A DNA stretch of 64,000 bases, from contig CAZDCG010000001.1 in NCBI GenBank assembly GCA_964503955.1, positions 173,804 through 237,803 of the forward strand, in the 5' to 3' direction. Below, piece by piece: positions 8,727 to 55,376 of this stretch (position 1 is its first letter; each line of letters begins with the position of its first letter). Position numbers and translations under genes: made by a program. The stretch is from an uncultured Gammaproteobacteria bacterium. Lineage in GTDB: Bacteria > Patescibacteriota > Patescibacteriia > VMEV01 > CAYQCH01. The notes under the pieces were generated by a model. It did no database searches and was not told where the DNA came from. It saw nothing but the letters and a program-made list of their open reading frames with translations.

Positions 8727-9124
8727 AGCCGGATGGAAGTTAGGTTCCCGCTTCGTCTAACTGTATTGAGACAATACAGGCAGACAACAGGAACGACGGT
8801 TCAATATGAAGAGTTCTGATTTCGAGAACGCTTCTCTCTTTCGGAGATGGATTGTCAAAAGACGGATCAGCTTAGTCGGTGGTCGAGATTGACACGAGAC
8901 GAGAAATGAATCGAGTTGAACTCCATCTATAACGTATCACTTCCATTGAAACGTTCAAGCTGTGTATAACTCCGTCATCAGTTTTGATGCATATGCATCT
9001 GTTCAAACATGAATCAAACGTTCCAGATAGACCACAACATTCCCGGACGAGTCCGCGGAATTTCAAATCTAACACGATCGTTAACGAGTTGTTCATGACT
9101 TGTAACCCGCTCACTCAAAACGAA

Positions 9125-9176
9125 GAAGACCCGCCGTCCGCAGCATCGATCGACACTGCTTCTGGCGGGTCTCTTC
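9125..9176 (-). terminator. imperfect hairpin just downstream of the high-GC island's 3' gene
   Basis: The arms are gaagacccgcc ... ggcgggtct(c)ttc. It lies immediately 3' of the stop at 9191. Confidence 0.35.
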
Positions 9177-9190
9177 AGAAGACGGGCAGC

Positions 9191-10636
9191 CTAGGCGGCC
9201 TGGCCCTTCTTCTTCTTACCGGACTTGGAGCTCTTCTCCTCGTCCTTGCTCTTCTTCCCCTTCTTCTTGCCACCCTTCTTGGCCGGCGACTCGGAGCTCT
9301 GCTTGAGACGAACCTCCTTGCGCTGCTCCTCGAGGAACTTGTCCCAGTTGAACGAAGGGAAGTCGTTCTTCATCTGGTTGAGCAGGCGGCTCACCTTGTC
9401 CGAGTCACCCAGCTGGAGGGCCGCCCGGAGGCGATCCTTGCTCTTCTCGACGCGCGGGTCGTTCTGGGGCTTCATGCCCTCCTTGACCGGCGCGGCCTTA
9501 TTGACGGGCTGGTTGTCCTTGCCCTTGGGCATGGACTTGGCGGTCGCCAGCTTCCGGATCGCACCGAAGACCTGCGTGGCCTTGGGGTGGGTCCAGACCG
9601 GCAGCGCGTTGCGGAGGCTGGGCTCCTTGCGGGCCAGCGACTCGATGCCGGCGTAGACCTGCTGCATGAGCTCGACACACTCGATGTTGCTCGCGAAGGC
9701 CTCCTCCAGGGTCCCCCGGATATTGGCCCACGACCCCACGATGTGTTCACCCACGATCTCGCAGGCATCGATCAGCTTCGCGCGCTGCCCCACCTTGCGG
9801 TTCGGGTCCATCTTGCGCCGCAGGTTGGCCAGCGTCGTGTCCACGCGCATGGCCAGGTGCTCGCTGTTCAGCGGCTCGCGGTCCTCGTTGGCCGCGTCCC
9901 AGCCCTTGCGGTAGTGCTCGCTCTGCCGGTCCACGGACACGGAGTCCGAGAACCGGACCTGAGCGCCGAGGCACTCGATCCAGCCGAGCAGCCAGAGCCC
10001 TCGCTTGTTGCCCACGAAGAGCCGCTCGAGACGACCGTTGAGCGAGGCGTCCTTGAGGCACCCCTCGCGGTTCCCCGAGCCGCTGACGATGTGCTTGATG
10101 ATCAGCACGCTGATCACCCAGGCCTTGCGCTTGCAGTTGAGGTTCTCGCTGTCGAACACCTTCTTGGCGTTGTCGAGCGTGGTGTTGAGGTACCACGCCC
10201 TCTTGGCCTTGAGGGTCTCCAGGGTCTCCTTGGCCCTGAGGTGGATGACGCGCGAGGTCTCGCACGCCTGCGCCTCCTTGTGGACCGGCCCGCGCTCGTC
10301 CCCGTTGTTGAGGGGCGAGCACATGATCATCTGGTAGTAGGTCACGAGCGCCTTGTCCACGGCATCCTCGGAGAGGAACTTGCCCTCCCCGTCCATAAGC
10401 GGACGGACGACCTCGACCCAGGCGTCGACCACCTTGCTGATCTCCTCCTTGAAGGTCACCGCCGGCTTGGGCGCCTCCTTCTTGTTCTCCTCGACCTCGA
10501 CGGTGGCCACCGGCTCGAGGGCGGGCGGCACGGCGAGGATCTCCTCGACCGGCTCGTTCTGCACGAGGTGATCGAGCGCCTTGTTGATGGCGCGGCCGAT
10601 GGCGCGCTCGAAGCGGCTGCGGATGAGACCGATCAT
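9191..10636 (-). CDS. hypothetical protein with a highly basic polylysine C-terminal tail, encoded in the high-GC island
   Basis: The 481-aa ORF begins MIGLIRSRFERAIG, and GGAGG lies 4 nt upstream of the ATG. GC3 is near 95%, with AAG/GAG/CTC/ATC codons throughout. The C-terminus is KKGGKKKGKKSKDEEKSSKSGKKKKGQAA. I recognise no family. Confidence 0.6.
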   Translation of the reverse strand: MIGLIRSRFERAIGRAINKALDHLVQNEPVEEILAVPPALEPVATVEVEENKKEAPKPAVTFKEEISKVVDAWVEVVRPLMDGEGKFLSEDAVDKALVTYYQMIMCSPLNNGDERGPVHKEAQACETSRVIHLRAKETLETLKAKRAWYLNTTLDNAKKVFDSENLNCKRKAWVISVLIIKHIVSGSGNREGCLKDASLNGRLERLFVGNKRGLWLLGWIECLGAQVRFSDSVSVDRQSEHYRKGWDAANEDREPLNSEHLAMRVDTTLANLRRKMDPNRKVGQRAKLIDACEIVGEHIVGSWANIRGTLEEAFASNIECVELMQQVYAGIESLARKEPSLRNALPVWTHPKATQVFGAIRKLATAKSMPKGKDNQPVNKAAPVKEGMKPQNDPRVEKSKDRLRAALQLGDSDKVSRLLNQMKNDFPSFNWDKFLEEQRKEVRLKQSSESPAKKGGKKKGKKSKDEEKSSKSGKKKKGQAA

Positions 10637-10848
10637 GAAACCTCCCCTGATGATGCCCGTTCGGGCGGTTGACGTGGGAACAAATCCCTTCTCTGTTTGG
10701 CAATGTATAAAAAGAATTTCTTCCCACGCCAACCTGATTTGTTTGTAAATGTGCGTTTTCCTCTCAGGTCACACCAGTCATGATGTAACCGATTGAGGAG
10801 AGGTGGCGCAGCTCATGGCCGCGCCACCCCCTCGTTGATCTTCCAGCC

Positions 10849-22946: not shown

Positions 22947-23689
22947 AGATTCCCGCTTGGAAAACGCGTATTCATATCGGCACATCAGGATGGAATTATG
23001 CAGACTGGAAAGGCACATTCTATCCCGGCGGACTGCCGCAAAAATCCTGGCTGGCCCACTATGCGCGAACCTTTCAGACCGTCGAAATAAACGCGACATT
23101 TTACCGAATCCCTTCAAAGAACGTTATCCGCTCATGGAAACAAGCCGTGCCGGAACAGTTTATTTTTTCCTGCAAAGCGCATCGCATGACCACGCATGTC
23201 AAAAAATTGCGAAGCCCAAAAGAAACCATCAAGCCGTATCTTTCTGTCATCAGGGGTTTACGGCCGAAGCTCGGCCCCATTCTGATTCAGCTTCCTCCAA
23301 GCCTGAAACATAACCAACAGCGGCTGGATCAATGTTTGCGCGCCCTGCCCAAAAACCACCGCTTTGCATTCGAGTTTAGAAATCCAAGCTGGTTTAACAA
23401 TGAAGTACGCGCATCATTGCAAAAGCATCACTGCGCATTTGTGATCTACCACATGGCAGGCCAGAAAACGCCGCATTGGGTGACAACCGACTTTGTTTAT
23501 ATTCGGATGCACGGCGCTTCAGGAAAATACCAGGGTAAATATCAGAAGCGGGATCTAGGCAAATGGGCCGAGCGCATACAGCAATGGGCCAAAACAAAAA
23601 AAGATGTCTATTGCTACTTTAATAATGACCCGCATGCCCATGCGCCCATAAACGCGCAGGAACTCAAACAGCTGCTTGGAATCGCTTAA
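22943..23689 (+). CDS. DUF72 domain protein
   Basis: The 248-aa ORF begins IGTSGWNYADWKGTFYP...FQTVEINATFYRIP, the DUF72 signature. It overlaps the UDG gene by 4 nt (ATGA). Confidence 0.85.
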   Translation: MKIPAWKTRIHIGTSGWNYADWKGTFYPGGLPQKSWLAHYARTFQTVEINATFYRIPSKNVIRSWKQAVPEQFIFSCKAHRMTTHVKKLRSPKETIKPYLSVIRGLRPKLGPILIQLPPSLKHNQQRLDQCLRALPKNHRFAFEFRNPSWFNNEVRASLQKHHCAFVIYHMAGQKTPHWVTTDFVYIRMHGASGKYQGKYQKRDLGKWAERIQQWAKTKKDVYCYFNNDPHAHAPINAQELKQLLGIA

Positions 23690-24513
23690 GTAAGGAAAAG
23701 CATGGATCTTGAACTCACTCGTATCTGCAGCTTATTGCTTTGCACCGAAATGCCGTCAAATGTCATTGGCAGCGGCAAGGACGACTGAACAAGCAGAGAG
23801 TCGATTTCTATGGCGGGCATTCCATTCACGCCCTCTTGTATTTGCCGTACATAGTCTCGCAAAAGCGACAACATCCCTCCTTCATGGATATGCAGGCAAA
23901 GCTTCTCAGCCCCCGCATCCATTAGAAACGCGGATAATTCCTGCCCATGCAATCGCACCCAGGCCATTCCGCAGGATCCGGTTACCGTCACGGAATTCCG
24001 CCGCAAAGCCGCGCGGCACTTTCGTGCAAACGTTGATTCGTTCGTCAGCATATGCATGCATTTAGGAGCCCAGCCGATTCTCAGGCTTGAGATGAAATAT
24101 CCATGCTGGCTTTCTCCCTGAAACTCGCCTAAAAACACGCGCTCAGGTTTTGGCTGCATGAGCCTTGCCACAGCTTGCTCAATATCTTTTGAAATACCGA
24201 GCCGCTTAACCGAGTGCATCACGCTGCCGCATGGCAAAATCCCGACAGGACCGCAATCAAAAGGAAGGCCATTGACCACCTCATGCAATGTTCCGTCCCC
24301 GCCTGCCACCAATACGCCTTTGTAGCGGCCTCCTTCGTTGCGCGCCACATCCGTGGTATCCTGCCGAGATTTCGTGACGACCGCCCGCACATTCAGCGCG
24401 TGCTTTTTACAAAGCACAAGCAGGTCAGGAAGCAGCACGCGGCAGGTTCGAGAAAGCAAAAAACGTTTCCTGCCGGCTTTGGGATTATAAATCAGCAGAT
24501 AAGAGGATTTCAT
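23686..24513 (-). CDS. diacylglycerol/lipid kinase catalytic domain protein (YegS/DAGK_cat family)
   Basis: It begins MKSSYLLIYNPKAGRKRF and carries VLVAGGDGTLHEVVNGL (GGDG motif). Confidence 0.75.
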   Translation of the reverse strand: MKSSYLLIYNPKAGRKRFLLSRTCRVLLPDLLVLCKKHALNVRAVVTKSRQDTTDVARNEGGRYKGVLVAGGDGTLHEVVNGLPFDCGPVGILPCGSVMHSVKRLGISKDIEQAVARLMQPKPERVFLGEFQGESQHGYFISSLRIGWAPKCMHMLTNESTFARKCRAALRRNSVTVTGSCGMAWVRLHGQELSAFLMDAGAEKLCLHIHEGGMLSLLRDYVRQIQEGVNGMPAIEIDSLLVQSSLPLPMTFDGISVQSNKLQIRVSSRSMLFLT

Positions 24514-24555: not shown

Positions 24556-24768
24556 TCACTTTGCATGTCCGCGCTGCTTATGGTGTTTCATCACCGTGCG
24601 CGCAGCCACCTCTTTTTCCCTTCCTTTATACCGCCCGGTTTTTCTCGCACTGTTCTTTATATGTTCATACTCCCGCTGCTCCTTTTTGCTCAGGCTGGCT
24701 ATGGGATTGTTTCGTTTGGATGGCTTTGATCGTGATTGTTTTGGCATAACCACCCGTATATACACCAA
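24556..24768 (-). CDS. small highly basic hypothetical protein
   Basis: The 70-aa Lys/Arg-rich ORF lies upstream of the lipid kinase on the same strand. There is no recognisable domain. Confidence 0.3.
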   Translation of the reverse strand: MVYIRVVMPKQSRSKPSKRNNPIASLSKKEQREYEHIKNSARKTGRYKGREKEVAARTVMKHHKQRGHAK

Positions 24769-24813: not shown

Positions 24814-25296
24814 ATGAAATGGCTTTACCTCATCATTCCATTGCTGGCTTTAACTCCTCTTTCAGAGGTTTTTGCCCACTCTGGGAGCAGCTGCGGTTCT
24901 TGCAGCGGATACGGCGGATATCCTGATTATGGGCGCTACGCGAATATTCCAAGATATGGCGGCTATTACCCAGGATACGGAGGGTATCCTCGCCACGGCG
25001 GGTATCCTGGATATGGCTACTATGGGTATCTCCCCCGGTTCGGTGAACAGTACGAAGGAGATTTCCGCCGCGGACAGGGTTCAGATTTCTTCTTTGATGA
25101 TCGCCTAGACCAGTTCAATCGTTCAAATCTCCGCTTTGATCCCTACCGGGGATTTAAAGGGTTTGATCCAAGACCGATTGACGGATTTCAGCATGACCGG
25201 CTTGACCGCTATAACTATCTTTACCAGCCTCAGGAAATTTATCAGGGATTTAAAGGGTTTGAACGGAGCTTTGGCCGTTTCCCCGGAGACCGCTAG
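24814..25296 (+). CDS. secreted Gly/Tyr/Pro-rich low-complexity protein
   Basis: It has a signal peptide (MKWLYLIIPLLALTPLSEVFA), then GYGGYPDYGRYANIPRYGGYYPGYGGYPRHGGYPGYGYYGY repeats, then a DRLD/FKGF repeat region. Confidence 0.6.
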   Translation: MKWLYLIIPLLALTPLSEVFAHSGSSCGSCSGYGGYPDYGRYANIPRYGGYYPGYGGYPRHGGYPGYGYYGYLPRFGEQYEGDFRRGQGSDFFFDDRLDQFNRSNLRFDPYRGFKGFDPRPIDGFQHDRLDRYNYLYQPQEIYQGFKGFERSFGRFPGDR

Positions 25297-25299
25297 TGT

Positions 25300-25782
25300 A
25301 TGAAAAAGCAAATCTTTTTTTTGATCGCACCGTTCCTCGCTCTGCCGGGGCTCAGCCAGGCTCAATCTCCGTATGGGCCTCCATACAACCCGTCTTATCC
25401 AGCTGACATCCCCATCAACGGGGAGCCTTCATACCAGCAGAATCCTTACGAGCAAACCCCATGCAGCGAAACGAGGGATACCTATACGCCGCGGCCAAGA
25501 GATGTCTATTACCCAAACCAGGGATTGCCGGACGGTGACGATCTTTTCCGCAACCCCGAAGAATTTGTCAGGCGCAGAAACGAATATTATCGAGCGAATC
25601 CCCACGTACCAGGCGATGGTTTTTTCGTGCCGGAAGAGCAACCCCCTTACCGCAGGCATCCGCAGCTTCCTCCTCCGCATTTCTACCCGCAGGACCCTTG
25701 GCAGCCGCAGCCGTATCCGCCACTTCCGCCGCCTCGCTTCTGTTGTTTCCTGATGCCTCCCGGCTATCAGCAGCCGTACTGA
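25300..25782 (+). CDS. secreted Pro/Tyr-rich low-complexity protein
   Basis: It has a signal peptide (MKKQIFFLIAPFLALPGLSQA), then PYGPPYNPSYP... and a PQPYPPLPPPRF tail. It is 160 aa, the same length as its upstream neighbour. Confidence 0.6.
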   Translation: MKKQIFFLIAPFLALPGLSQAQSPYGPPYNPSYPADIPINGEPSYQQNPYEQTPCSETRDTYTPRPRDVYYPNQGLPDGDDLFRNPEEFVRRRNEYYRANPHVPGDGFFVPEEQPPYRRHPQLPPPHFYPQDPWQPQPYPPLPPPRFCCFLMPPGYQQPY

Positions 25783-25793: not shown

Positions 25794-25821
25794 TTGACAA
25801 AACGCCAAAATATGCTATACT
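25794..25821 (+). promoter_or_regulatory. sigma70-type promoter for the RRM gene
   Basis: A TTGACA -35 box, 16-nt spacer and TATACT -10 box. It lies about 80 nt upstream of the ATG at 25900. Confidence 0.6.
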
Positions 25822-26151: not shown

Positions 26152-26173
26152 ACGGCTTTGGTAAGATAGCAGG

Positions 26174-26206
26174 AAAAAACCGTCCCATTCGGGGCGGTTT
26201 TTTCAT
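26174..26206 (+). terminator. Rho-independent terminator
   Basis: The hairpin is aaaaccgtccc attc ggggcggtttt, followed by a T-run. Confidence 0.7.
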
Positions 26207-26782: not shown

Positions 26783-27226
26783 ATGAGAAACGGAAACGGA
26801 GCAACACTTGTCGCCTGGATCGCACTGGTCGTGGCCGTCATCGCCCTGATCGTTGGCTGGAGCGCCTATGCACGAGGAGATCAAAGCATCCGCCGGTACG
26901 CCCAGGATCAGTTCAACAGCTGGGACAACCGGTTTGATTCCTGGCAGGCGGACATGGCTTTGCGCGGCGCCGCAGAGGATTTACGCGACATCCGCCGCGC
27001 GATTGAAAATGAGGACGATCAACAAGACATACAGGAAGATATGGACGACCTGCGGGATGATCTCAGAGATGTCGCGGCTGATCTTGAGGGAGATGAAGCG
27101 CAGCCGGTCAGAGAAATCGAACAAGGCGTTCTGGAATTGGCCGGGCAATGGAAACAAGATGCGCAGCAGGCAATTTCCCGGATCGATCAGCTGCTGCAAG
27201 ACATTGACCGCGCGCTTGCCCGGTAA
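26783..27226 (+). CDS. hypothetical membrane-anchored acidic coiled-coil protein
   Basis: It has one N-terminal transmembrane helix, then DDLRDDLRDVAADLEGDE repeats. Confidence 0.45.
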   Translation: MRNGNGATLVAWIALVVAVIALIVGWSAYARGDQSIRRYAQDQFNSWDNRFDSWQADMALRGAAEDLRDIRRAIENEDDQQDIQEDMDDLRDDLRDVAADLEGDEAQPVREIEQGVLELAGQWKQDAQQAISRIDQLLQDIDRALAR

Positions 27227-39746: not shown

Positions 39747-40175
39747 TTACTCACCTGGATAAAACTCAATAATCCACTCAATACCGTACTTGTCCCTAAA
39801 CATACCGGCATAAGAACCCCAGGGACCTTCGCCCATTGGCCCTTCTACGCTTCCTCCGGCAGAAAGACCGTTAAATAACCTGTCCGCTTCTTCCTTGCTT
39901 TGAGCCGTAACTAAAATTTTGCTCCTGTTCTCTTGCTCATTCACCTTCCCCATAAATTCCGGCACATCATTTCCCGTCAATACGCTGCCCTCGCCAATCG
40001 TCAACGTAATAAGCATGATTTTGTTTTCTTCTCCTTCCGGAACGGTGAATTCAGGACTCGCAAGGTCTTTGAAACGCACGATTTTCCCAAATTCCCCGCC
40101 GAATACTGATTGATAAAACGTAAACGCCTCTTCAGCGTTGCCATTGAAGTTGATCCAAGGATTGATTGTGGCCAT
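39747..40175 (-). CDS. VOC family protein (PhnB / 3-demethylubiquinone-9 3-methyltransferase-like glyoxalase fold)
   Basis: It begins MATINPWINFNGNAEEAFTFYQSVFGG. This is a paralog of the gene at 42045-42491. Confidence 0.8.
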   Translation of the reverse strand: MATINPWINFNGNAEEAFTFYQSVFGGEFGKIVRFKDLASPEFTVPEGEENKIMLITLTIGEGSVLTGNDVPEFMGKVNEQENRSKILVTAQSKEEADRLFNGLSAGGSVEGPMGEGPWGSYAGMFRDKYGIEWIIEFYPGE

Positions 40176-40297
40176 AGGTGAGTTAGATAAAACTAGATTG
40201 ATTGTACATTCCGGAATCAAAAATCACCAGCTTTTGCCGGTGATTTTTGATTGGCTCCCTTTGTTGGACTCATTTAGAACGGTTGATTGATATGCGA

Positions 40298-40570
40298 TTA
40301 AGAAACAGTTATCCTCAACTTCACGTTAAGGGCATCTGCCACCTTGTAAAGAAATTCTAAAGAGGGATTATACGATCCTGACTCAAACCGAGAAATAGCA
40401 GATTGTTTGGTGCCAATTTTTTTTGCTAAATCCGATTGAGAAATATTTTTCTCTAACCTTTTTTCTATCAACTCTTGAATAATCAAATACTCAGGTTCAA
40501 GCGCTTTGTAGCTCTTATTGACCTGCTTGTCTTTAAGCAATTCAGATTTTAGGGATTTATAGCTTTTCAT
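40298..40570 (-). CDS. HTH XRE-family antitoxin (HigA-like)
   Basis: The 90-aa ORF has a helix-turn-helix (ISQSDLAKKIGTKQSAISRFESG). It lies directly downstream of the RelE/ParE-like toxin. Confidence 0.75.
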   Translation of the reverse strand: MKSYKSLKSELLKDKQVNKSYKALEPEYLIIQELIEKRLEKNISQSDLAKKIGTKQSAISRFESGSYNPSLEFLYKVADALNVKLRITVS

Positions 40571-40593
40571 ATGGAATGAATATAACGTATATG

Positions 40594-40911
40594 TTATATA
40601 CTGTCAAGCGATGCTTTTCTTTCTTGTGCCAGCTTTAAGTGCTTTGCAGGTATCTTCTGACTCTTTTTCATAAAGCCATGCAAGATAATGGCTATTTTGC
40701 CAGATTGAAAAGTATAGATAAAGCGAACTTCTTGAACACCTCTAATTCGCAACTCATGCAATCCTTTTCCAATACTCTTTGAATGAGGCATTTTTAGATC
40801 TTCCCCAAATTGCTCAAGTAAATCAAAGGTACGCAAAACCTTGGCAATAGTTTGTTTCTCCAAACTCTTGATAAATTTTTCTATGTCTTCGTCATACAAC
40901 TTTATTTGCAT
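40594..40911 (-). CDS. type II toxin, RelE/ParE superfamily (HigB-like)
   Basis: It begins MQIKLYDEDIEKFIKSLEKQTIAKVLRTFDLLEQFGEDL and has KGLHELRI...IAIILHGFMKKSQKIP. The toxin-first order is typical of HigBA. Confidence 0.7.
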   Translation of the reverse strand: MQIKLYDEDIEKFIKSLEKQTIAKVLRTFDLLEQFGEDLKMPHSKSIGKGLHELRIRGVQEVRFIYTFQSGKIAIILHGFMKKSQKIPAKHLKLAQERKASLDSI

Positions 40912-40989
40912 AAAAAAACACGCCATTTCTTTTTAAAGAAGGGGCGTGGGCTGACATGTTGATTATAGCAGAAAAATATCAATCAAAAA

Positions 40990-41012
40990 ACTGGTCAAAG
41001 GACCAGCTTTTT
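40990..41012 (-). terminator. Rho-independent terminator after tRNA-Asn
   Basis: ctggtc aaag gaccag, with T-runs on both strands. Confidence 0.6.
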
Positions 41013-41015
41013 GAT

Positions 41016-41090
41016 TGGCTCCGAGGGTGGGACTCGAACCCACGACCAATTGGTTAACAGCCAACTGCTCTACCACTGAGCTACCTCGGA
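41016..41090 (-). tRNA. tRNA-Asn (anticodon GTT), CCA encoded
   Basis: The reverse complement folds as a cloverleaf (TCCGAGGTAGCTCAGTGGTAGAGCAGTTGGCTGTTAACCAATTGGTCGTGGGTTCGAGTCCCACCCTCGGAGCCA). The acceptor stem has 7 bp, the D stem is GCTC/GAGC and the anticodon loop is CTGTTAA. The T arm is GTGGG-TTCGAGT-CCCAC. Confidence 0.85.
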
Positions 41091-41326
41091 ATATTCTCGT
41101 CTAACCATTTTCTGCCTTGGCCAGACTTCAAGAAACGCTCTCTCTTTTCTGCTTCCCACCTGGTTTGAAAACCTTCACTGTGCATCAAGTTGAATGGGCC
41201 ATTCTGCCTCGTCCATTTATTTGATCCTGAATGATGATCTTTCAAGCGCTCAAGAGCGGTTTTTGAAGTATAACCAACGTAGCGTTTGTTATTTTTCAGA
41301 CTTCTCAGCACATAAACAAAAAACAT
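41081..41326 (-). CDS. GIY-YIG nuclease family protein (81 aa)
   Basis: MFFVYVLRSLKNNKRYVGYTSKTALERLKDHHSG.... The last codons and the TAG stop (IPR*) are positions 2-10 of the downstream tRNA-Asn. Confidence 0.8.
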   Translation of the reverse strand: MFFVYVLRSLKNNKRYVGYTSKTALERLKDHHSGSNKWTRQNGPFNLMHSEGFQTRWEAEKRERFLKSGQGRKWLDENIPR

Positions 41327-41361
41327 AAATTTATGGGCAGAGATTAATATTGTAAGGAGCT

Positions 41362-41431
41362 TGGTGAACAGCCCCAGCCATAGGCTGGTCCGCCTCTGGC
41401 GGAAACTGCTCTACCACTGAGCTACCTCGGA
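41362..41431 (-). pseudogene. degenerate partial tRNA-Asn copy (positions 1-28, a roughly 30-nt GC-hairpin insertion, then a mutated anticodon arm GGCTGTTCACCAAGC)
   Basis: 29 nt are identical to the tRNA 5' end. After the insert, 12 of 15 nt match tRNA positions 29-43. Confidence 0.55.
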
Positions 41432-41676
41432 ATATATATTCTTCTTTTTAAGAACGCTCTCCCAAACCCAGTTTTAAAGTATTTCTCACGAGCCTGGGAA
41501 TCTCTCTTCGACAAACAAGCCTCGTAGTAAATTAACTTCACGGGCCTACGGTAATTTGTCGAGGAAACATTTCCACTCTCGTGTTCACTTATCCTTCTTT
41601 GCAAGTCAGATGCACTACCGATGTAAAACTTATCATCCGAGCAAAGAAGTACATATGTGTAATGAAACCCTTCCAT
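41422..41676 (-). CDS. GIY-YIG nuclease family protein (84 aa)
   Basis: MEGFHYTYVLLCSDDKFYIGSASDLQRRISEHESG.... Its ATG directly abuts tRNA-like GAGCAGTTT, and its C-terminal IPR* plus TAG is supplied by the next pseudo-tRNA copy. Confidence 0.8.
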   Translation of the reverse strand: MEGFHYTYVLLCSDDKFYIGSASDLQRRISEHESGNVSSTNYRRPVKLIYYEACLSKRDSQAREKYFKTGFGRAFLKRRIYIPR

Positions 41677-41779
41677 AAACTGCTCCCCGCCGCTCAGCTA
41701 TGCAGAGCTGGCGGGCCCGCCTGCACTGAACGTAGCATAGCGCAGTGATGTGCGGCGGGTACCACTGAGCTACCTCGGA
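41677..41779 (-). pseudogene. partial tRNA-Asn copy (positions 1-20 and 21-28) interrupted in the D-loop by a 74-nt inverted-repeat element
   Basis: TCCGAGGTAGCTCAGTGGTA, then the 74-nt insert, then GAGCAGTTT. Confidence 0.55.
41686..41759. repeat. 74-nt GC-rich miniature insertion with 8-bp terminal inverted repeats CCCGCCGC / GCGGCGGG
   Basis: CCCGCCGCACATCACTGCGCTATGCTACGTTCAGTGCAGGCGGGCCCGCCAGCTCTGCATAGCTGAGCGGCGGG. A related copy about 85% identical over some 45 nt lies at 41906-41950. Confidence 0.5.
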
Positions 41780-41785
41780 ATACAA

Positions 41786-41815
41786 TTGACATTTGACTGT
41801 TGACCTTTGACTTGA
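41786..41815. repeat. heptamer tandem repeat (TTGAC on the plus strand, four times at 7-nt phasing)
   Basis: aatTGACAtTTGACTgTTGACCtTTGACTtg lies immediately 5' (minus-strand sense) of the pseudo-tRNA/GIY-YIG array. Confidence 0.4.
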
Positions 41816-41825
41816 AAGATCAACA

Positions 41826-41955
41826 TTCTTTGGATCAACTGCTCTACCACTGCCCGCCCGCCGGCTCCTAACGAGCGCTAGCGAGGATAAGCGGTGGGAG
41901 CTACCCCTGCCCGCCAGCACTGAACGAAGCATAGCGTAGTGATGTGCGGCGGGTC
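41826..41955 (-). pseudogene. fourth, most degenerate tRNA-Asn 5' fragment
   Basis: Minus-strand TCCGA + insert + GGGTAGCTC + insert + CAGTGGTAGAGCAGTTG. It carries two GC-rich insertions related to the 74-nt element. Confidence 0.45.
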
Positions 41956-42044
41956 GGAATAAGAAGAAAATGACCAGGAGAGCCGGCCATTTCCATGAAT
42001 ATCCTAACAGAATGAGACAAAAGAAGCAAGCTTGTTCCCTTCTC

Positions 42045-48591: not shown

Positions 48592-49215
48592 TTGAAACAA
48601 CCTATGTACACCTGCCCAATGCATCCGGAGGTCACCTCCGATATCAAAGGATCATGTCCAAAATGCGGCATGGCTCTTGTACAATATTCCACGGCAAAAT
48701 CCCAGCGTCATCATCAGGAAGGTAAAGGACTTGGCGGCACCACATGGAAGAGCTACCAGCCGCTTGCCGTCATTCTATCTCTGATTGTTCTCTGCGCGGC
48801 CATTGTTTCGCTGGAAAGTGAGCGCCCCCTTTCCTCATTTTTGCTTGCCACAATGACCGGGTTTTTTCTTGTCTTTGCGGGCTTTAAGCTCATTGACTTG
48901 AAAGGATTCGCGCAAGGCTATTCCACATACGACCTGCTCGCCCAGCGCTGGTTCGGGTATGGATATATCTACCCATTCATCGAACTGGGATTTGGCTTGC
49001 TCATGCTTGCCGGTTATCACCCTGACTGGCTCTTATGGTCAGAAGCCGGTCTGATGTCGTTTAGCGGACTTGGAGTAGCTCTCAAATTGGCCAAACGGGA
49101 ACGATTTACCTGTGCCTGCCTTGGAACATTCCTGAAAGTACCGCTTACCTATGTCACCCTGCTGGAAAACTTCGGCATGGCCGCAATCGCGCTCCTGCTT
49201 CTTTTCCTTCGTTAA
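48592..49215 (+). CDS. heavy-metal-binding (CPMHPE motif) domain fused to a MauE/DoxX-like membrane domain
   Basis: The N-terminus is YTCPMHPEVTSDIKGSCPKCGMAL. Four transmembrane helices follow, then a C-terminal CxC (FTCACLG). Confidence 0.6.
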   Translation: MKQPMYTCPMHPEVTSDIKGSCPKCGMALVQYSTAKSQRHHQEGKGLGGTTWKSYQPLAVILSLIVLCAAIVSLESERPLSSFLLATMTGFFLVFAGFKLIDLKGFAQGYSTYDLLAQRWFGYGYIYPFIELGFGLLMLAGYHPDWLLWSEAGLMSFSGLGVALKLAKRERFTCACLGTFLKVPLTYVTLLENFGMAAIALLLLFLR

Positions 49216-49226
49216 TACACCAAGCT

Positions 49227-50132
49227 ATGCAAAAAATTATTCCTCATCTCTGGTACGACAAAGAGGCAAAAGAAGCGGCGGAATTTTACACGTCGATTTT
49301 CCCGAATTCAAACGTTACAAGCACCGTAACGCTGCACGATACTCCCTCAGGCGACGCGCAGACCGTTTCTTTCGAACTGAACGGCCAAGAATTCATGGCG
49401 ATCAGCGCGGGTCCTTACTTCAAATTCAACCCGTCCATTTCCTTCATGGTTAACTTTGACCCCTCTCAAGACAAAAATGCGAAACAGCATTTGGACGAGG
49501 CCTGGAAGAAACTTTCCGAAGGAGGCCAGGTTCTTATGCCGCTTGATACATACCCGTTCAGCGAATACTATGGCTGGATTCAGGACAAGTACGGTCTCTC
49601 CTGGCAGCTCATGCTGACAAACCCTAAAGGAGAAGCGCGTCCCTTCATCATTCCTTCGCTCCTGTATGTGACGGATACCTGCGATAAAGCTGAAGAAGCA
49701 ACAAACTTTTATCTTTCTGTCTTTAACGACGCGAGGCGCGGGCAGCTGGTCCGCTACCCGGCCGGCATGGAGCCCAATAAAGAAGGGGCCATCATGTTCA
49801 CAGATTTTCAGCTTGAAAACCAGTGGTTCATGGCCATGGACGGCAGTAGCACAATGCACCATTTCGCGTTCAACGAAGCAGTTTCTTTCATGGTAAAATG
49901 CAGAGACCAGGAAGAGATCGATTATTACTGGGAGAAACTTTCAGCCGTCCCCGAAGCGGAACAATGCGGCTGGCTCAAAGACGCCTACGGCGTTTCCTGG
50001 CAGATCGCGCCGACGATTATGGACGATATGATGCGGAATGGAACCCAGAAACAAATCGCAAATGTCACGCAGGCTTTCCTGAGAATGAAAAAGTTCGATA
50101 TCAAAACCTTAGAAGAAGCCTTTAAACAATAA
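49227..50132 (+). CDS. tandem-domain VOC family protein (two PhnB-like glyoxalase-fold domains)
   Basis: IIPHLWYDKEAKEAAEFYTSIF... and IIPSLLYVTDTCDKAEEATNFYLSVF... are repeated halves. Confidence 0.8.
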   Translation: MQKIIPHLWYDKEAKEAAEFYTSIFPNSNVTSTVTLHDTPSGDAQTVSFELNGQEFMAISAGPYFKFNPSISFMVNFDPSQDKNAKQHLDEAWKKLSEGGQVLMPLDTYPFSEYYGWIQDKYGLSWQLMLTNPKGEARPFIIPSLLYVTDTCDKAEEATNFYLSVFNDARRGQLVRYPAGMEPNKEGAIMFTDFQLENQWFMAMDGSSTMHHFAFNEAVSFMVKCRDQEEIDYYWEKLSAVPEAEQCGWLKDAYGVSWQIAPTIMDDMMRNGTQKQIANVTQAFLRMKKFDIKTLEEAFKQ

Positions 50133-50136
50133 TCCT

Positions 50137-50571
50137 ATGTTTGCATCAAACAAAGAATCCTTTTTTACAAAAGCCTCCCAATCCACCTACTCTCTCCTGC
50201 GCATCGTCGCGGCATTCTTCTTTATCCAATTTGGAGGAATGAAACTGTTCGGTTGGTTCGGGGGCATGGATGGACAAGGCGCAGCCGCTGAACTGGCAAC
50301 ACTCATGGGCGCGGCCGGTATCTTAGAAGTATTTGGAGGAGCTCTCATTCTGCTTGGATTATTCACCAGGCCGGTTGCCTTTTTGCTCGCGGGTGAAATG
50401 GCTTTTGCTTATTTCCTCGGCCACTTTTCCATGGCATTTTGGCCGGTACAGAATGGCGGGATTGGAGCGGTTCTCTATTGTTTCCTCTTCCTGCATATGG
50501 CAGCCAAAGGCGCGGGAGGGTTCAGTCTCGATTCACGGCTTGATCGAAGGAAAATGGCAAAACAAGCCTAA
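50137..50571 (+). CDS. DoxX family membrane protein
   Basis: YSLLRIVAAFFFIQFGGMKLFGWFGG... It has 4 transmembrane helices. Confidence 0.8.
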   Translation: MFASNKESFFTKASQSTYSLLRIVAAFFFIQFGGMKLFGWFGGMDGQGAAAELATLMGAAGILEVFGGALILLGLFTRPVAFLLAGEMAFAYFLGHFSMAFWPVQNGGIGAVLYCFLFLHMAAKGAGGFSLDSRLDRRKMAKQA

Positions 50572-50584
50572 AATAAAAATGCCG

Positions 50585-50612
50585 CCCCTTTCATGGGGTG
50601 GTTTTCTTTTTG
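50585..50612. terminator. bidirectional terminator
   Basis: cccc tttcat gggg, followed by tggttttctttttg on the plus strand and CATTTTTATTTT on the minus strand. Confidence 0.5.
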
Positions 50613-50635
50613 TGCTGATTTTTTCATGGGTATCC

Positions 50636-50661
50636 CCTCCGGGAGCTCCCGCTCCCGGAGG
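50636..50661. repeat. perfect 11-bp-arm GC palindrome (cctccgggagc tccc gctcccggagg)
   Basis: Seen directly in the sequence. It lies in the 377-nt convergent intergenic region between the DoxX and rlu genes. Confidence 0.6.
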
Positions 50662-50948
50662 TACACCCATGACTGACCGCTAACCGACGTTGCCGCCGGC
50701 GAGCGGATTGGGAAGCGCAAAACGGCGCGTAGAACGCTTAGGCAGGACGGACGGCTGATCCCTCTTGGAATCGGCCGCTTCCTCATGCCGCCGCGCCTGC
50801 TTGCCGTCCTGAACATCTTGTGCCTGATCGTTGCGAGTAGATTCCGTGCCAGCCATAAACCCTCCCGCGGCTCCAGACAAGGAAAAGACAAGACCAAAAG
50901 CAATACATTTTGTTCCGGCCTTTCCTCCTTGTCAATGGTTCAGGAAGG

Positions 50949-51662
50949 CTATTTTTCCACAGAGCGCAGGCGGCGTTTGAGTGTTTTTACTTCGCCCGCG
51001 GAAAGCGGCCTTATCTCCCCTGCGGCAAGTTCGCCAAGCCTGACATTCATCACGCGGACACGCTTGAGCTTTTTGACTTCATAGCCAAGCTGCTCGCACA
51101 TGCGCCTGATCTGACGGTTTCTCCCTTCGGTAAGAACGATTGAAAATTGATTCTGGTTTAACTGCTTTACCTTCGCCGGCTTTGTTTTTTTGCCAAGGAT
51201 AACCATGCCTTTCGCCATGACGGCAAGATCCTGTTCTTTCAGCGGCTGTCTGACCGTGATAAGGTATTCCTTTTCATGATTGCCTTTCGGATGAGTGATT
51301 GCTTCCGCCAATACGCCGTCATTGGTCAGCAGCAAAAGTCCTTCTGAGGCAACATCTAGCCGGCCGACATGAAAGAGACGCTCCTGAAGCTTGAGAAAGG
51401 TCGCAATGGTATCCCGGCCGTTTGGATCAACCGATGAGAGAATGCCCACGGGTTTATAAAAAGCATAGTACTTGTATTCCGTTGGTTTGACCTGAAGAAA
51501 TTTGGCATCCACCTCGATTCGTTCATCGCCGCTGATAAGCATGCCTTTCTCCGCGATTCTCCCGTTCACGCGCACGCGGCCCGACGCAATGAGCTCGTCT
51601 GCACCCCGCCGCGACGCAATGCCCTGTTCGGCTAGAAATTTATTGATACGAATATAGGCCAT
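50949..51662 (-). CDS. RluB/RsuA-family pseudouridine synthase with S4 domain
   Basis: MAYIRINKFLAEQGIASRRGADELIASGRVRVNG (S4), then HVGRLDVASEGLLLLTNDG (catalytic Asp motif). Confidence 0.85.
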   Translation of the reverse strand: MAYIRINKFLAEQGIASRRGADELIASGRVRVNGRIAEKGMLISGDERIEVDAKFLQVKPTEYKYYAFYKPVGILSSVDPNGRDTIATFLKLQERLFHVGRLDVASEGLLLLTNDGVLAEAITHPKGNHEKEYLITVRQPLKEQDLAVMAKGMVILGKKTKPAKVKQLNQNQFSIVLTEGRNRQIRRMCEQLGYEVKKLKRVRVMNVRLGELAAGEIRPLSAGEVKTLKRRLRSVEK

Positions 51663-51777
51663 AGAATAGAATGTTCAAACGGTATCTGATTTTTCAAATA
51701 GGCGCAATCTCTTGAAAAGACCATTAAGCCGTTTTTTTGACGAAGATCTTGCCGCAACGTACGATACCGATTGAACC

Positions 51778-52887
51778 ATGATCAAAGAAAAGATCCAACA
51801 ATTCTTCTTCTTTCAAAAAACGAAGCAGCTCTATCGGCGCTTTGAGCGTTTTGTCATGCCGGCAACCCTGCTGCTTGGTTTGATGATTGATTTCTTCACG
51901 TTCAAAAACGTCAAGATCAGCACGGCTTTTCTTCTTCTTGGCCTGCACTTTCTTTGCGCGGGGCTCATCATTGCCTACCGCCAGCTCTATGACGCCAAAC
52001 GCATCCCGCGCTTGCTCCCCTTCCGTTACCTGCGGCTCTTTGCCCCCTTGCTGTTGCAGTTCTTTTTTGGCGCATTGCTTAGCGCCTCGTTTATTTTTTA
52101 CTGGTTCAGCGCGGCCGTTTCCGTGAGCTGGCCGTTTATTTTCCTCATTGCTTTTTTGATGGTTGCAAACGATGTCTTCCGTGAGTTCTATCTCAAACCG
52201 GTGGTTCAGGTCACGGTCTACTATTTTGTCACATTCTCCTTGTTCACGCTTGTCTTGCCATATCTGTCCCGTTCAATTGATGCACGCTATTTCCTCCTGT
52301 CCGGTTTGCTCAGCCTGGTTTTTATCAACCTGTACCTGCATCTTCTCTGGAAATTCGCCAAACAAATGCGCGCGCAGAGAAAGCAATATTTGTTTTCTAT
52401 AGCAGCCGTTTTTTTGGTTATGAATGCGGCCTATTTTTTCAATGTGATTCCTCCAATCCCCTTATCGCTGCGGGAAGCGGGCGTTTACCATGATATTCGC
52501 CGGCATGGTCCAAACTACATCCTGCAATCAGAGCAACAAACCCTGTTGCAAAAATTGGTTCCTGGACAAACCATCCATTGGCAGCCGGGAAGCCGCATAT
52601 CCGTTTTCACGTCCGTTTACGCGCCAACGGATTTTCGCGTCCCAATCACGCATCAATGGCAATACTATGACGAAAGCCGGGGACGCTGGATCAGCAAAGA
52701 CACGCTTTCCTTTCCTCTGACCGGCGGACGCCAAGACGGCTATCGGGGATATACCACAAAATCCGCGCTGGCTCCGGGCAGATGGCGCGTGAACGTGCAA
52801 ACATCACGTGGACAGGTGATAGGAAGGATTCGTTTTACCGTTGTTGAAACCGACCAGCCGCCTGTAGTGAAAGAAATTCTCCGTTAA
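51778..52887 (+). CDS. polytopic membrane protein with a C-terminal soluble domain
   Basis: The 369-aa ORF has 7-8 transmembrane helices. Its C-terminal 110 aa are hydrophilic (GQTIHWQPGSRISVFTSVYAPTDFRVPITHQWQYYDESRGRWISKD...). Confidence 0.55.
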   Translation: MIKEKIQQFFFFQKTKQLYRRFERFVMPATLLLGLMIDFFTFKNVKISTAFLLLGLHFLCAGLIIAYRQLYDAKRIPRLLPFRYLRLFAPLLLQFFFGALLSASFIFYWFSAAVSVSWPFIFLIAFLMVANDVFREFYLKPVVQVTVYYFVTFSLFTLVLPYLSRSIDARYFLLSGLLSLVFINLYLHLLWKFAKQMRAQRKQYLFSIAAVFLVMNAAYFFNVIPPIPLSLREAGVYHDIRRHGPNYILQSEQQTLLQKLVPGQTIHWQPGSRISVFTSVYAPTDFRVPITHQWQYYDESRGRWISKDTLSFPLTGGRQDGYRGYTTKSALAPGRWRVNVQTSRGQVIGRIRFTVVETDQPPVVKEILR

Positions 52888-52923
52888 GTATGTTATTCTT
52901 GTGAGCAGCATTACTTTTAACAC

Positions 52924-53568
52924 ATGCCTATGCTAAAGGAACATGCATCAAAACACCGTGGCAAGCTGCTCTTAGCGGCTATTGTCGTCCTGGCCGCAGG
53001 TTCAGGCTTGTTTGCCAGCAACTATTTCTCCGAGAAAAAAAATGAGCAGGTTTTTTGCACGCTCGAGGCAAAACTTTGTCCAGATGGGACAATGGTCGGC
53101 AGAACCGGGCCAAATTGCGAATTTGCAGAATGCCCAAGTACATCTATCCCACAAGGGTGGAAGACCATGACGGACGAACAATCCGGCCTCACCTTCTCGT
53201 ATCCGGAAACCCTTGAAACGACCTATATCAGCACCACGGACTGGCCTCCAAGCATTTTTGTTGTGAATGAACCGTTCTCATGTGTTGAAGCAGGATCCCC
53301 TATTGATCGTGCCGGCGAGACACGCCAACGTGAAATAAACGGACATATCTATTGCGTGACAACCATCATGGAAGGAGCGGCAGGAAGCACCTATACGCAA
53401 TACGCCTATGTCACCGAAATCGATGGCAAGGTTATTTCGCTGACATTCTCTCTACGTATGGTTCAATGCATGAATTACGATGATCCGCAGCAAACCGAAT
53501 GCCTCAATGAACGGGAAACGTTCAATGTAGATCCGATTATCCATCAAATTGCGCAAAGCGTTAGATAA
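52924..53568 (+). CDS. hypothetical membrane-anchored or secreted Cys-containing protein
   Basis: It has an N-terminal anchor (LLLAAIVVLAAGSGLFA) and paired cysteines (CTLEAKLCPDG...CEFAECP). Confidence 0.5.
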   Translation: MPMLKEHASKHRGKLLLAAIVVLAAGSGLFASNYFSEKKNEQVFCTLEAKLCPDGTMVGRTGPNCEFAECPSTSIPQGWKTMTDEQSGLTFSYPETLETTYISTTDWPPSIFVVNEPFSCVEAGSPIDRAGETRQREINGHIYCVTTIMEGAAGSTYTQYAYVTEIDGKVISLTFSLRMVQCMNYDDPQQTECLNERETFNVDPIIHQIAQSVR

Positions 53569-53634
53569 CAGCAGAATAGGCCCGGATTGCCAATGAAAGG
53601 CTTCTGGGCTATTCTTTGTATAACCTAATAACCC

Positions 53635-53651
53635 ATACCCCCTTAGGGTAT
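53635..53651 (+). promoter_or_regulatory. candidate CsoR operator ATACCCCC-TTA-GGGTAT
   Basis: This GC-tract palindrome of the ATACCC...GGGTAT type lies 9 nt upstream of the csoR start. It matches the architecture of known CsoR operators. Confidence 0.55.
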
Positions 53652-53659
53652 ACACACCT

Positions 53660-53932
53660 ATGCTGCCGGAGATCAAAAAAGACGCGGTTCGCCGCATGAA
53701 AATCATTCAGGGACAGGTGAACAAAATCCAGTCCATGATTGAGGACGGAGCTTACTGCCCAGACATCATGACGCAGTCATTAGCGGTGCAAAACGGACTG
53801 AAACAAGTGGAGGCCAAGCTGCTTGAAGGTCACCTGAAAACATGCGTTAAACACCAGATGACTGAAGGGAAAACCAATAAAGCTGTTGAGGAACTCTTGA
53901 AAATCTTCAAGCTTTCAAAGAAAAATAAGTAA
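53660..53932 (+). CDS. csoR: CsoR family copper-sensing transcriptional repressor
   Basis: The 90-aa ORF has the DUF156 fold, with the x-Y-C-x...H...C signature residues (AYCPDIMTQSLAVQ...HLKTCVKH). Confidence 0.8.
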   Translation: MLPEIKKDAVRRMKIIQGQVNKIQSMIEDGAYCPDIMTQSLAVQNGLKQVEAKLLEGHLKTCVKHQMTEGKTNKAVEELLKIFKLSKKNK

Positions 53933-53936
53933 TACT

Positions 53937-55376
53937 ATGAACGCACAACCGGGCGAAAAGAAACCAAAGGAGAACATTTTCTACATCCGCGGAATGCATT
54001 GTTCATCGTGCGAGATTCTCATTGAGAAGAAACTGCTGAAGCAACCTCAAATCCTGGCGGCAGATGTTTCTCTTGGAAAGAGAAGCGCCAGGGTATCTGT
54101 CGAACGGGGGAAATTCATCGACACCAACGAGCTAAACCGAATCTTTGCTGAAGACGGATATAAATTTTCAAAGCAGCCGTTCGCAGATGACCGCCCCCCT
54201 CTCTTCTCCTATACAGACGGAAAGCTTGTCATCAATAAGCAAAAGTTTAACTCCCTGATGAAAATACTCCTTGTCTTCACATCATTTCTTTTTGTCTTTT
54301 TTTCCCTTGAACGGATGCAGCTGGGCCGTTTCATTACTGTCGACACCTCCTCATCCCTGGTTGCTTTCTTCCTGCTCGGACTTATAGCAGGACTCTCAAG
54401 CTGCGCCGCACTGATTGGTGGGATCTTGCTTTCGTTGACCAAACATTGGAATGAGCTGGCCATAGCGAGCGACGGCAAACAAAAGCGTAAAACCCCTCAC
54501 CTCCTTTTCCACGTCGGAAGAATTGCCTCATTCTTTCTTCTGGGCGGATTGCTAGGCATGCTCGGAGACACCATCTCTTTGAACAATACTGTTGTTTACG
54601 GCTCCCTCGTCACCATCATTTCACTTGTCATGTTTCTTCTTGCTCTGCAGATGTTAGGCGTATCTTGGGCTCAGCGAATGAAATTTTCCGCACCTAAATT
54701 CATTACTCGCTTCGCGGCTGACGAAACATCGTTTTCGGGTAAACAGATGCCCTTCCTCACTGGAGCGCTGACCTTTTTTCTGCCCTGCGGATTTACGTTG
54801 ATCGCCCAAGGTGTCGCACTGACTACAGGAAGTTTTTTTCAGGGAGCAGCGATCATGTTGTTTTTCGCTCTGGGAACATTGCCATTGCTTGCTAGTATCA
54901 GCTTGACCGGACTCACCTTCACCAAGCGTCCCCACCTGACAGCAAACTTCACGCGCGTGGCAGGACTCCTGATATTGTTCTTCGCCCTTTACAACATCAA
55001 CGGACAGCTTAATGTTCTGGGCCTCCCAAGCCTTAGTGACTTGAATCTCTCAAGCTCCTTCAAACCAGCGAAACCTGATCCTCGCTTGGCAGCGAACCCG
55101 GGAGAACAGCAAGAAATCAACATCATCGCAGAGGGATTTGACTATACTGCCAATGGGCCGACCGTACTTGCCGCAGGCGTCCCCACAACACTCATCGTAG
55201 AAAACCGAGGCGTGCTTGGCTGCGCGGCATACATGGCATCAAGAGGCCTCATCGACAGCTTCGTTCAGCTGCAAACAGGAGTGAATAAAATTGACCTGGG
55301 CACCCCAAAGCCCGGCACGTACAAGATTACCTGCTCGATGGGCATGGTGGCACCTGTTGCCGTTACCTTTAACTAA
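53937..55376 (+). CDS. heavy-metal-associated (HMA) domain fused to a TauE/SafE-DsbD-like permease, with a C-terminal cupredoxin-like domain
   Basis: The N-terminus has GMHCSSCE. Six or more transmembrane helices follow. The C-terminus carries TTLIVENRG...TYKITCSMGM. Confidence 0.65.
   Translation: MNAQPGEKKPKENIFYIRGMHCSSCEILIEKKLLKQPQILAADVSLGKRSARVSVERGKFIDTNELNRIFAEDGYKFSKQPFADDRPPLFSYTDGKLVINKQKFNSLMKILLVFTSFLFVFFSLERMQLGRFITVDTSSSLVAFFLLGLIAGLSSCAALIGGILLSLTKHWNELAIASDGKQKRKTPHLLFHVGRIASFFLLGGLLGMLGDTISLNNTVVYGSLVTIISLVMFLLALQMLGVSWAQRMKFSAPKFITRFAADETSFSGKQMPFLTGALTFFLPCGFTLIAQGVALTTGSFFQGAAIMLFFALGTLPLLASISLTGLTFTKRPHLTANFTRVAGLLILFFALYNINGQLNVLGLPSLSDLNLSSSFKPAKPDPRLAANPGEQQEINIIAEGFDYTANGPTVLAAGVPTTLIVENRGVLGCAAYMASRGLIDSFVQLQTGVNKIDLGTPKPGTYKITCSMGMVAPVAVTFN

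Follow-up and report, generated by a model that had tools for sequence, protein, structure and literature searches.

Two adjoining open reading frames (ORFs) of equal length and unusual composition raise a double question: are they genes at all, and what could proteins of this kind do for the cell that makes them? The pair, here called P1 and P2, lies in a 64-kb stretch of contig CAZDCG010000001.1 from an uncultured bacterium, and we refer to this whole stretch as the window. P1 (24814..25296, + strand) and P2 (25300..25782, + strand) each specify a precursor of 160 amino acids. The product of P1 would be an exported protein rich in Gly, Tyr, Arg and Phe, with a mature part of about 139 residues (16.2 kDa, isoelectric point 8.5), and that of P2 an acidic exported protein rich in Pro, Tyr and Gln, also with about 139 mature residues (16.4 kDa, isoelectric point 5.1). 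The two ORFs share one frame: the TAG stop codon of P1 is followed by the single codon TGT, a gap of 3 nt, and then by the start of P2. A preliminary description had reported two adjoining 160-residue ORFs, each opening with a signal peptide and continuing as a Tyr-rich low-complexity protein; its coordinates are exact, and the other two claims are borne out below by residue rules, composition and sequence entropy.

We consider it highly probable that P1 and P2 are real genes and that their products are exported. The explanation that best accounts for the locus as a whole, namely real, exported, disordered and self-associating proteins of the envelope or of a matrix, has in our estimate about an even chance of being right. 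That their role is to form a structural or protective self-assembling material is a more tentative proposal, to which we give somewhat less than an even chance. Export itself, like co-transcription, disorder, assembly and biological role, is a property that we infer.

Coding status and export signals

The annotated frame is the best of the six for P1 (score 0.128) and, weakly, for P2 (0.012). Synonymous codon choice gives log-likelihood ratios of 0.079 for P1 and 0.065 for P2, which lie within about one standard deviation of the window's confident genes (0.118 +/- 0.061) and are higher than those of off-frame controls (-0.013 +/- 0.068). Conservation between repeated segments of P1 is seen at the level of the protein: the two copies of its internal repeat are identical at 11 of 23 residues, five of them encoded by different synonymous codons; four of the five conserved residues of the DRLD..N block differ solely at the third codon position; and the two GYGGYP copies show third-position differences only. 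At the DNA level, TRF finds no tandem repeats in either gene. By our own arithmetic, an uninterrupted ORF of 160 codons is expected by chance with a probability of about 5e-4 per frame. Removing the pair would leave an empty stretch of 1.27 kb in a region where no other gap exceeds 163 nt, except for the 300 nt that precede P1.

Assemblies other than the window point in the same direction. Gene callers run on independent metagenome (Logan) contigs call both P1 and P2, and P2 is also present in an NCBI genome. The ORFs are intact on all contigs that cover them, three of which are identical to the window while one carries a strain allele with three synonymous and four amino-acid changes. P1 and P2 are thus, to judge by these sequence features, very probably real genes and should be kept in the annotation.

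Each precursor begins with a putative signal peptide of 21 residues, whose n-region, h-region and residues at positions -3 and -1 agree with the rules for Sec export and cleavage by signal peptidase I. That of P1 (24814..24876, + strand; MKWLYLIIPLLALTPLSEVFA, followed by HS) consists of MK, an 11-residue hydrophobic core LYLIIPLLALT (Kyte-Doolittle 2.38) and an AXA-like cleavage site, VFA|H; acidic residues are absent from its first 14 positions. That of P2 (25300..25362, + strand; MKKQIFFLIAPFLALPGLSQA, followed by QS) consists of MKK, the 11-residue core IFFLIAPFLAL (Kyte-Doolittle 2.80) and SQA|Q. Sequence inspection shows no lipobox of the form [LVI][ASTVI][GAS]C at the end of either h-region, the first Cys of P1 being residue 26, after HSGSS, and no RR in either n-region that would suggest a twin-arginine motif. 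A crude signal-peptide filter is passed by only 8 of the 279 mechanical ORFs of at least 60 codons in the window: P1 and P2 are among them and adjacent, and the other six are mostly membrane-protein-like or exported-protein-like.

The two signal peptides resemble each other well beyond chance (Smith-Waterman score 36 versus 16.7 +/- 3.5 for shuffles, p ~2e-4), with 8 of 14 residues identical, six of these through synonymous codons. The mature parts share no similarity by BLASTP, by Smith-Waterman comparison with shuffles, in any ungapped register or at the DNA level. Paralogy of P1 and P2 was accordingly rejected, the mature parts being unrelated in every register and the likeness confined to the signal peptides; an old tandem duplication would be a plausible source of the equal lengths and similar signal peptides.

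Architecture, composition and possible role

Both mature parts have a strongly biased composition. P1 contains 19.6% Gly, 14.5% Tyr, 11.6% Arg, 10.1% Phe and 8.7% Asp; P2 contains 25.4% Pro, 10.9% Tyr, 8.0% Gln, 8.0% Arg, 5.1% Phe and 5% Gly. Aromatic residues make up 24.5% of mature P1 and 16.5% of mature P2, against a mean of 8.9% and a maximum of 23.9% among the window's confident genes, and sequence entropy is 3.54 for P1 and 3.70 for P2, against 3.95 +/- 0.12. When the ORFs of the window are ranked by their content of Tyr, Gly and Pro, P1 and P2 take the top two places. Both mature chains are strongly hydrophilic, with a grand average of hydropathy (GRAVY) of -1.20 for P1 and -1.36 for P2.

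P1 had been described as a run of YGGYP/GYGGY repeats followed by FKGF repeats. The first element stands, but the architecture is tripartite: a basic GYGGYP-type region (about residues 31-76) is followed by a charged linker and by a longer, two-copy repeat of the form DRLDxxN...YxGFKGF[D/E], which is not simply FKGF. The Gly/Tyr-rich basic region (24904..25041, + strand; residues 31-76) has GYGGYP twice and GYPGYGYY, with 29% Gly, 27% aromatic residues, an isoelectric point of 8.9 and a Pro every 6-9 residues. Copy 1 of the internal repeat (25099..25167, + strand; residues 96-118, DRLDQFNRSNLRFDPYRGFKGFD) and copy 2 (25195..25263, + strand; residues 128-150, DRLDRYNYLYQPQEIYQGFKGFE) align with a Smith-Waterman score of 56, against 23.8 +/- 5.3 for shuffles (p ~2e-4), and the start of each coincides with a short predicted helix (residues 94-104 and 128-132). 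A CGSC motif stands right behind the cleavage site. AlphaFold, run on the single sequence, models P1 mostly as coil, with a mean predicted local distance difference test score (pLDDT) of 48.7 and values below 50 across residues 21-76.

For P2, the preliminary description of PY/PQPYPP repeats holds for the Pro/Tyr/Gln-rich ends only: they flank a charged, non-repetitive centre (about residues 71-112) that contains a predicted helix. The AlphaFold model, obtained in the same way, is again mostly coil (mean pLDDT 58.1), its only helix spanning residues 81-99 (25540..25596). The C-terminal Pro-rich region (25636..25779, + strand; residues 113-160) has 37.5% Pro and ends in ...PPPRFCCFLMPPGYQQPY with a Cys-Cys pair, which together with C55 makes up the cysteines of P2. 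The predicted template modelling score is at most 0.20 for each of the two models, too low for matches in a structure library to carry meaning. Both chains may be largely disordered. Aromatic residues are spread unusually evenly along them: the largest gap between two aromatics is 8 residues in P1, against 14.7 in shuffles (p = 0.0026), and 12 in P2, against 20.1 (p = 0.024).

These properties suggest the following scheme. P1 and P2 would probably be co-transcribed and translationally coupled; Sec-type export and cleavage by signal peptidase I after Ala21 would yield a pair of extracytoplasmic proteins, each of about 16 kDa, whose final site may be the periplasm, the wall or the medium, depending on the type of envelope. 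The mature chains would behave as stickers and spacers, with evenly spaced Tyr and Phe (and Arg in P1) set amid Gly, Pro, Gln and Asp. P1 has a basic Gly/Tyr end, P2 is acidic, and their isoelectric points are complementary (8.5 versus 5.1). The most probable mode of action would be multivalent self-association and mutual association through aromatic-aromatic, aromatic-arginine and electrostatic contacts. The product would be a gel-like or coat-like material of the envelope or matrix with a structural, adhesive or protective role, and might be strengthened by the few cysteines (CGSC in P1; C55 and the Cys-Cys pair in P2) or by cross-links between tyrosines.

The sticker-and-spacer composition is present in both chains: Tyr/Phe and Arg stickers stand among Gly and polar spacers in P1, and among Pro and Gln spacers in P2. 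In one study, Tyr and Arg are described as the primary drivers of phase separation by low-complexity domains, through aromatic-aromatic and aromatic-arginine contacts (PMC10888811). P1 is similar in composition, GYGG-type motifs, even aromatic spacing and predicted disorder to the prion-like domains of the FUS/hnRNPA1 type and to the Gly/Tyr tails of RRM proteins. FUS-type domains belong to larger RNA-binding proteins of the cytoplasm or nucleus, whereas P1 stands alone and carries a signal peptide, so that its site of action should be extracytoplasmic; P1 also differs from them in its abundance of Phe and Asp and its scarcity of Ser, Gln and Asn, and shows no homology to them. A bolder version of the scheme, which we regard as unlikely, would make the pair a two-component extracytoplasmic condensate or hydrogel of basic P1 and acidic P2, an exported bacterial counterpart of eukaryotic sticker-and-spacer proteins that coats or fills the envelope, is possibly hardened by disulfides or dityrosine, and exposes a P2 helix under diversifying selection. 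If true, the pair would add a new class to the materials of bacterial envelopes, one that had arisen de novo or diverged past recognition within a lineage that is unsampled.

Secreted structural proteins of eukaryotes offer a second comparison. Resilin is a disordered elastomer, and extensins and the glycine-rich wall proteins of plants are secreted and cross-linked through dityrosine or isodityrosine. P1 and P2 are like these proteins in having a signal peptide, predicted disorder and richness in Gly, Pro and Tyr: the Pro and Tyr of P2 recall extensin chemistry, and the Gly and Tyr of P1 recall resilin and plant glycine-rich proteins. Dityrosine cross-linking of P1 and P2 would be possible. 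Resilin and extensins are, however, eukaryotic, their repeats (SPPPP, GGRPSDSYGAPGGGN) are absent from P1 and P2, and the peroxidases, laccases or tyrosinases associated with such proteins have no detectable counterpart in the window. The broader suggestion of a cuticle-like or adhesive-like protein finds no support at family level, since searches of Pfam, NCBIfam and the PDB and an exhaustive phmmer search with P2 returned no homology to any such family.

Among bacterial systems, the secreted, repeat-containing, matrix-forming proteins CsgA/CsgB of curli, Fap, TasA and chaplins are alike in kind. A functional-amyloid nature, which had been proposed for the pair, is disfavoured by the 25% Pro of P2, the regularly placed Pro of the P1 Gly/Tyr region and the hydrophilicity of both chains, features that argue against a cross-beta core. 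In addition, P1 and P2 have no Pfam or NCBIfam match and no relative in the PDB, and no nucleator or secretion gene of this kind adjoins them. Spore-coat proteins had been proposed as well. CotC, CotU and CotG of Bacillus are small, Tyr-rich, cross-linkable and Lys/Asp-rich, and are laid down from the mother-cell cytoplasm without signal peptides. P1 and P2 resemble them in size and Tyr richness, but show no homology to spore-coat families, and their signal peptides conflict with such a nature.

The keratin-associated-protein-like Gly/Tyr composition of P1 brings to mind yet another type of coat, around an extracytoplasmic inclusion or mineral, as formed by sulfur globule proteins. SgpA, SgpB, SgpC and SgpD of purple sulfur bacteria are Sec-exported periplasmic structural proteins of 11-13 kDa that resemble keratin or cell-wall proteins; a genome encodes several of them, of which two can stand in for each other, and they are 'extremely hydrophobic' (PMC10386293). 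P1 and P2 share with them a small size and a Sec signal peptide. The mature parts, in contrast, are strongly hydrophilic (GRAVY as above), no sequence similarity to Sgp proteins or other relatives was found, and the window contains no detectable sulfur-oxidation genes (sox/dsr/sqr). A coat of this type is, in our view, extremely improbable.

Several observations weigh against the reading of P1 and P2 as real, exported, disordered and self-associating proteins, and some would fit spurious ORFs instead, i.e. a non-coding or decaying low-complexity stretch, or one gene split by a stop codon. The pair is known here from its sequence alone. Both frame scores lie below those of confident genes (0.257 +/- 0.088), as expected from the odd composition, the +1 frame outscores the annotated frame on composition within the Gly/Tyr region of P1, and long shadow ORFs occupy other frames. 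P1 is absent, by exact look-up, from a collection of 15 billion proteins in which its neighbours are present; the NCBI record may leave it unannotated or annotate it from another start codon. No homologues were found, so conservation cannot serve as support. The signal peptides were called with crude rules of our own rather than with a trained predictor, and the low pLDDT of models built from one sequence counts little as evidence for disorder, since it is expected when there is no alignment. The 300-nt gap before P1 has no sigma-70-like site matching at 8 or more of 12 positions on the + strand, and no partner enzymes, secretion genes or assembly genes for P1 and P2 were seen nearby among the scanned ORFs of the window.

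That P1 and P2 are spurious nonetheless appears very unlikely to us. Two canonical signal peptides lie side by side, the repeats are kept at the protein level through synonymous changes, codon usage is gene-like with the annotated frame best, the ORFs are intact in all strain contigs, and the window is otherwise compact. The shared frame with a single TAG between the ORFs would be compatible with read-through or with one fused gene split by a stop, a possibility that we rejected, since P2 opens with a signal peptide of its own, and such a peptide would be pointless in the interior of a fused protein.

Missing homologues and an allelic hot-spot in P2

Neither P1 nor P2 belongs to a recognisable family: Pfam (E <= 0.01), NCBIfam (E <= 1), PHROGs and PADLOC gave no match, a sequence search of the PDB gave nothing significant, and the window contains no paralogues of either. 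A word-indexed search of 5.8 billion clusters returned nothing for P1 or for its C-terminal half alone, and its sole match to P2 was P2's own 98% allele. The same allele was the only match in an exhaustive phmmer/HMMER comparison with 1.84 billion representatives. This exhaustive pass covered the P2 query, and P1 was covered by the word-indexed, JGI, IMG/VR and plasmid searches: P1 had no match in JGI metagenomes or, by tblastn, in plasmids, and IMG/VR scans were negative for both proteins.

The preliminary description had called for homologues to be sought and took poor conservation, combined with no sign of expression, as an indication of spurious ORFs. No homologue was found, and in that technical sense the pair is poorly conserved, yet the result is uninformative, as the whole lineage is without sequenced relatives. 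When 15 billion proteins are clustered at 90% identity, the UDG, DUF72, lipid-kinase, RRM and PadR proteins encoded in the same neighbourhood each form a singleton, and the clusters of the hemerythrin and the DAO oxidase comprise a few strain-level fragments only; the set of species representatives does not include the source genome. Since even conserved neighbours are singletons, the orphan status of P1 and P2 is unsurprising and weak as a signal. A genome scan anchored on the lipid kinase retrieved relatives 30-38% identical from unrelated phyla, and a metagenome scan anchored on DUF72 retrieved short soil contigs with proteins 43-53% identical; no comparable ORF was found beside these relatives. 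With nearest relatives at only 38% (lipid kinase) and 53% (DUF72), fast-evolving low-complexity orthologues would be undetectable. The missing homologues reflect sampling as much as novelty.

As it stands, P1 and P2 are a lineage-restricted orphan pair with a composition-level resemblance to structural and phase-separating proteins, and unsampled lineages commonly have secreted orphans of low complexity. Should the inferred behaviour be right, the pair would be a compact, genetically simple, exported bacterial example of a Tyr/Arg sticker grammar otherwise met chiefly in the intracellular condensates of eukaryotes and in structural materials of animals and plants. It would help to ask whether bacteria make use of condensate or gel chemistry in their envelope, and small recombinant polypeptides with adhesive or elastomer-like properties could be derived from it.

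Strain variation is concentrated in one part of P2. Between the window and the strain contig L004 there are 9 nucleotide differences, all of them inside 25516..25620 (+ strand), a segment of 105 nt, and none in the remaining 1146 nt. This polymorphic segment corresponds to codons 73-107 and covers the only predicted helix of P2; the changes are N73D, Q74L, D80G and H102R, plus three synonymous ones. Counted as about seven independent events, such clustering has by our arithmetic a probability below 1e-6 of arising by chance. A contig of another strain, L018, begins exactly at 25621, as if assemblies stopped at a multi-allelic bubble, and shows ordinary scattered substitutions downstream. The hot-spot may stem from a recombination tract from a diverged allele or from diversifying selection on an exposed helix. 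Diversification by a diversity-generating retroelement was rejected within the window: the interval 25470-25670 has no second copy there, the best chance match being 13 nt, and no reverse transcriptase domain was found among the scanned ORFs.

A clustered hot-spot in the only predicted helix of P2 would also fit an arms race, and hence a quite different function, in which P1 and P2 are exported bioactive proteins or peptide precursors with antimicrobial, anti-predator or effector activity. Animals and plants use secreted peptides rich in Gly and Tyr as antimicrobials, and the NLP/CNC peptides of nematodes and the shepherins of plants are GYGG-rich. The signal peptides, the small size, the orphan and fast-evolving character of the pair and the one PPxY-type motif of P2 (PPGY) would be in keeping with such a function. 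The hot-spot, however, is known from one variant contig, no immunity, transporter or processing gene adjoins the pair, dibasic or double-glycine processing sites are not evident, and mature proteins of 16 kDa whose charges balance do not resemble the typical cationic antimicrobial peptide. We consider a bioactive function unlikely, and retain a self-associating envelope or matrix material as the preferred reading.

Probable transcription unit, neighbouring genes and other features of the window

P1 and P2 probably form a bicistronic unit, co-transcribed under a non-housekeeping promoter, as we infer from the layout of signals around them. Upstream, the non-coding gap of 300 nt between DAGK_cat and P1 (24514..24813), negative in all six frames, is the presumed promoter and regulatory region of the pair; an Rfam scan found no match in it, and thus no cis-regulatory RNA upstream of P1. 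The 3' boundary is marked by a sigma-70-like promoter (25794..25821, + strand; TTGACA-16-TATACT, TG-extended, 11/12 match) that would serve the RRM gene. No terminator-like site lies between P1 and P2 or between P2 and the RRM gene, and the first strong one downstream of the pair is an intrinsic terminator-like site after the RRM gene (26173..26204). P2 is preceded by a GGAG motif, which carries little weight because the organism hardly uses Shine-Dalgarno sites: GGAG, GAGG, AGGA or AAGG motifs occur within 25 nt upstream of only 4 of 26 sampled starts in the window.

The gap upstream of P1 also contains a Lys/Arg-rich antisense ORF of 70 codons (24556..24768, - strand), which was rejected as probably not coding, all frames being negative and its codon usage off-frame-like; its only gene call comes from an edge contig, L021.

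In agreement with the preliminary description, the pair is flanked upstream by a lipid-kinase gene (DAGK_cat; 23686..24513, - strand) divergent from P1, and downstream by an RRM_1 gene, and family scans of the window's ORFs yield no functional link that would explain it. The genes of the neighbourhood are DAGK_cat, DUF72, UDG, RRM, hemerythrin, DAO oxidase, PadR and MsrB. The 64-kb window contains no detectable tyrosinase, laccase, peroxidase or amyloid-secretion genes; no csgEFG-type or fap-type assembly genes lie near the pair, and the window likewise showed no genes for sporulation. The sole nearby oxidase is the DAO-family flavoprotein, which is encoded on the opposite strand and has no signal peptide.

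Some of these neighbours have a stress-related flavour (MsrB, UDG, hemerythrin, the RRM protein and PadR) and would go with another role for P1 and P2, as exported hydrophilin-like protectants against desiccation, freezing or oxidative stress in soil. Such a role would be in line with the strongly negative GRAVY of both proteins and the high Gly content of P1; the lack of a housekeeping-type promoter before P1 would fit conditional expression, and the sequencing runs and catalogues that contain close relatives look soil-derived. Against this, P2 has only 5% Gly, the linkage to the stress genes is positional only, the neighbours having their own promoter, and known hydrophilins and late embryogenesis abundant proteins are rich in Lys, Glu, Ala and Thr and not in aromatic residues. 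We regard a protectant role as quite unlikely, and again favour exported, self-associating envelope or matrix proteins.

The RRM gene next to P2 encodes 83 residues and has a leader of about 70 nt. Its product is without the Gly-rich tail common in bacterial RRM proteins, while P1 has a composition of that sort behind its signal peptide; we regard the absence of the tail and the Gly/Tyr composition next door as a coincidence. Further downstream, 9 nt past the hemerythrin gene, a protein of 147 residues (26783-27226, + strand) combines an N-terminal membrane anchor with a very acidic, probably coiled-coil domain (DDLRDDLRD...). It matches no family above threshold, and all five of its substitutions in L018 are synonymous, which fits strong purifying selection.

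Three other regions of the window deserve mention. The interval 8984-10732 is GC-rich (0.55-0.59), and three long ORFs overlap there across both strands; of these the plausible one (9191..10732, - strand; 513 codons) has a Lys-rich tail and no Pfam match. A dip in GC content to 0.42 at 40000-42000 coincides with tRNA-Asn (41016..41090), a GIY-YIG ORF of 83 codons (41422..41676, - strand) and an HTH_3 regulator (40298..40570, - strand); a small element may have integrated here at the tRNA. Finally, a metal-handling cluster at 48592-58037 comprises an HMBD-MauE fusion, a protein of 479 residues whose N-terminus is MerTP-like, and an 809-residue P1B ATPase of the CopA type.

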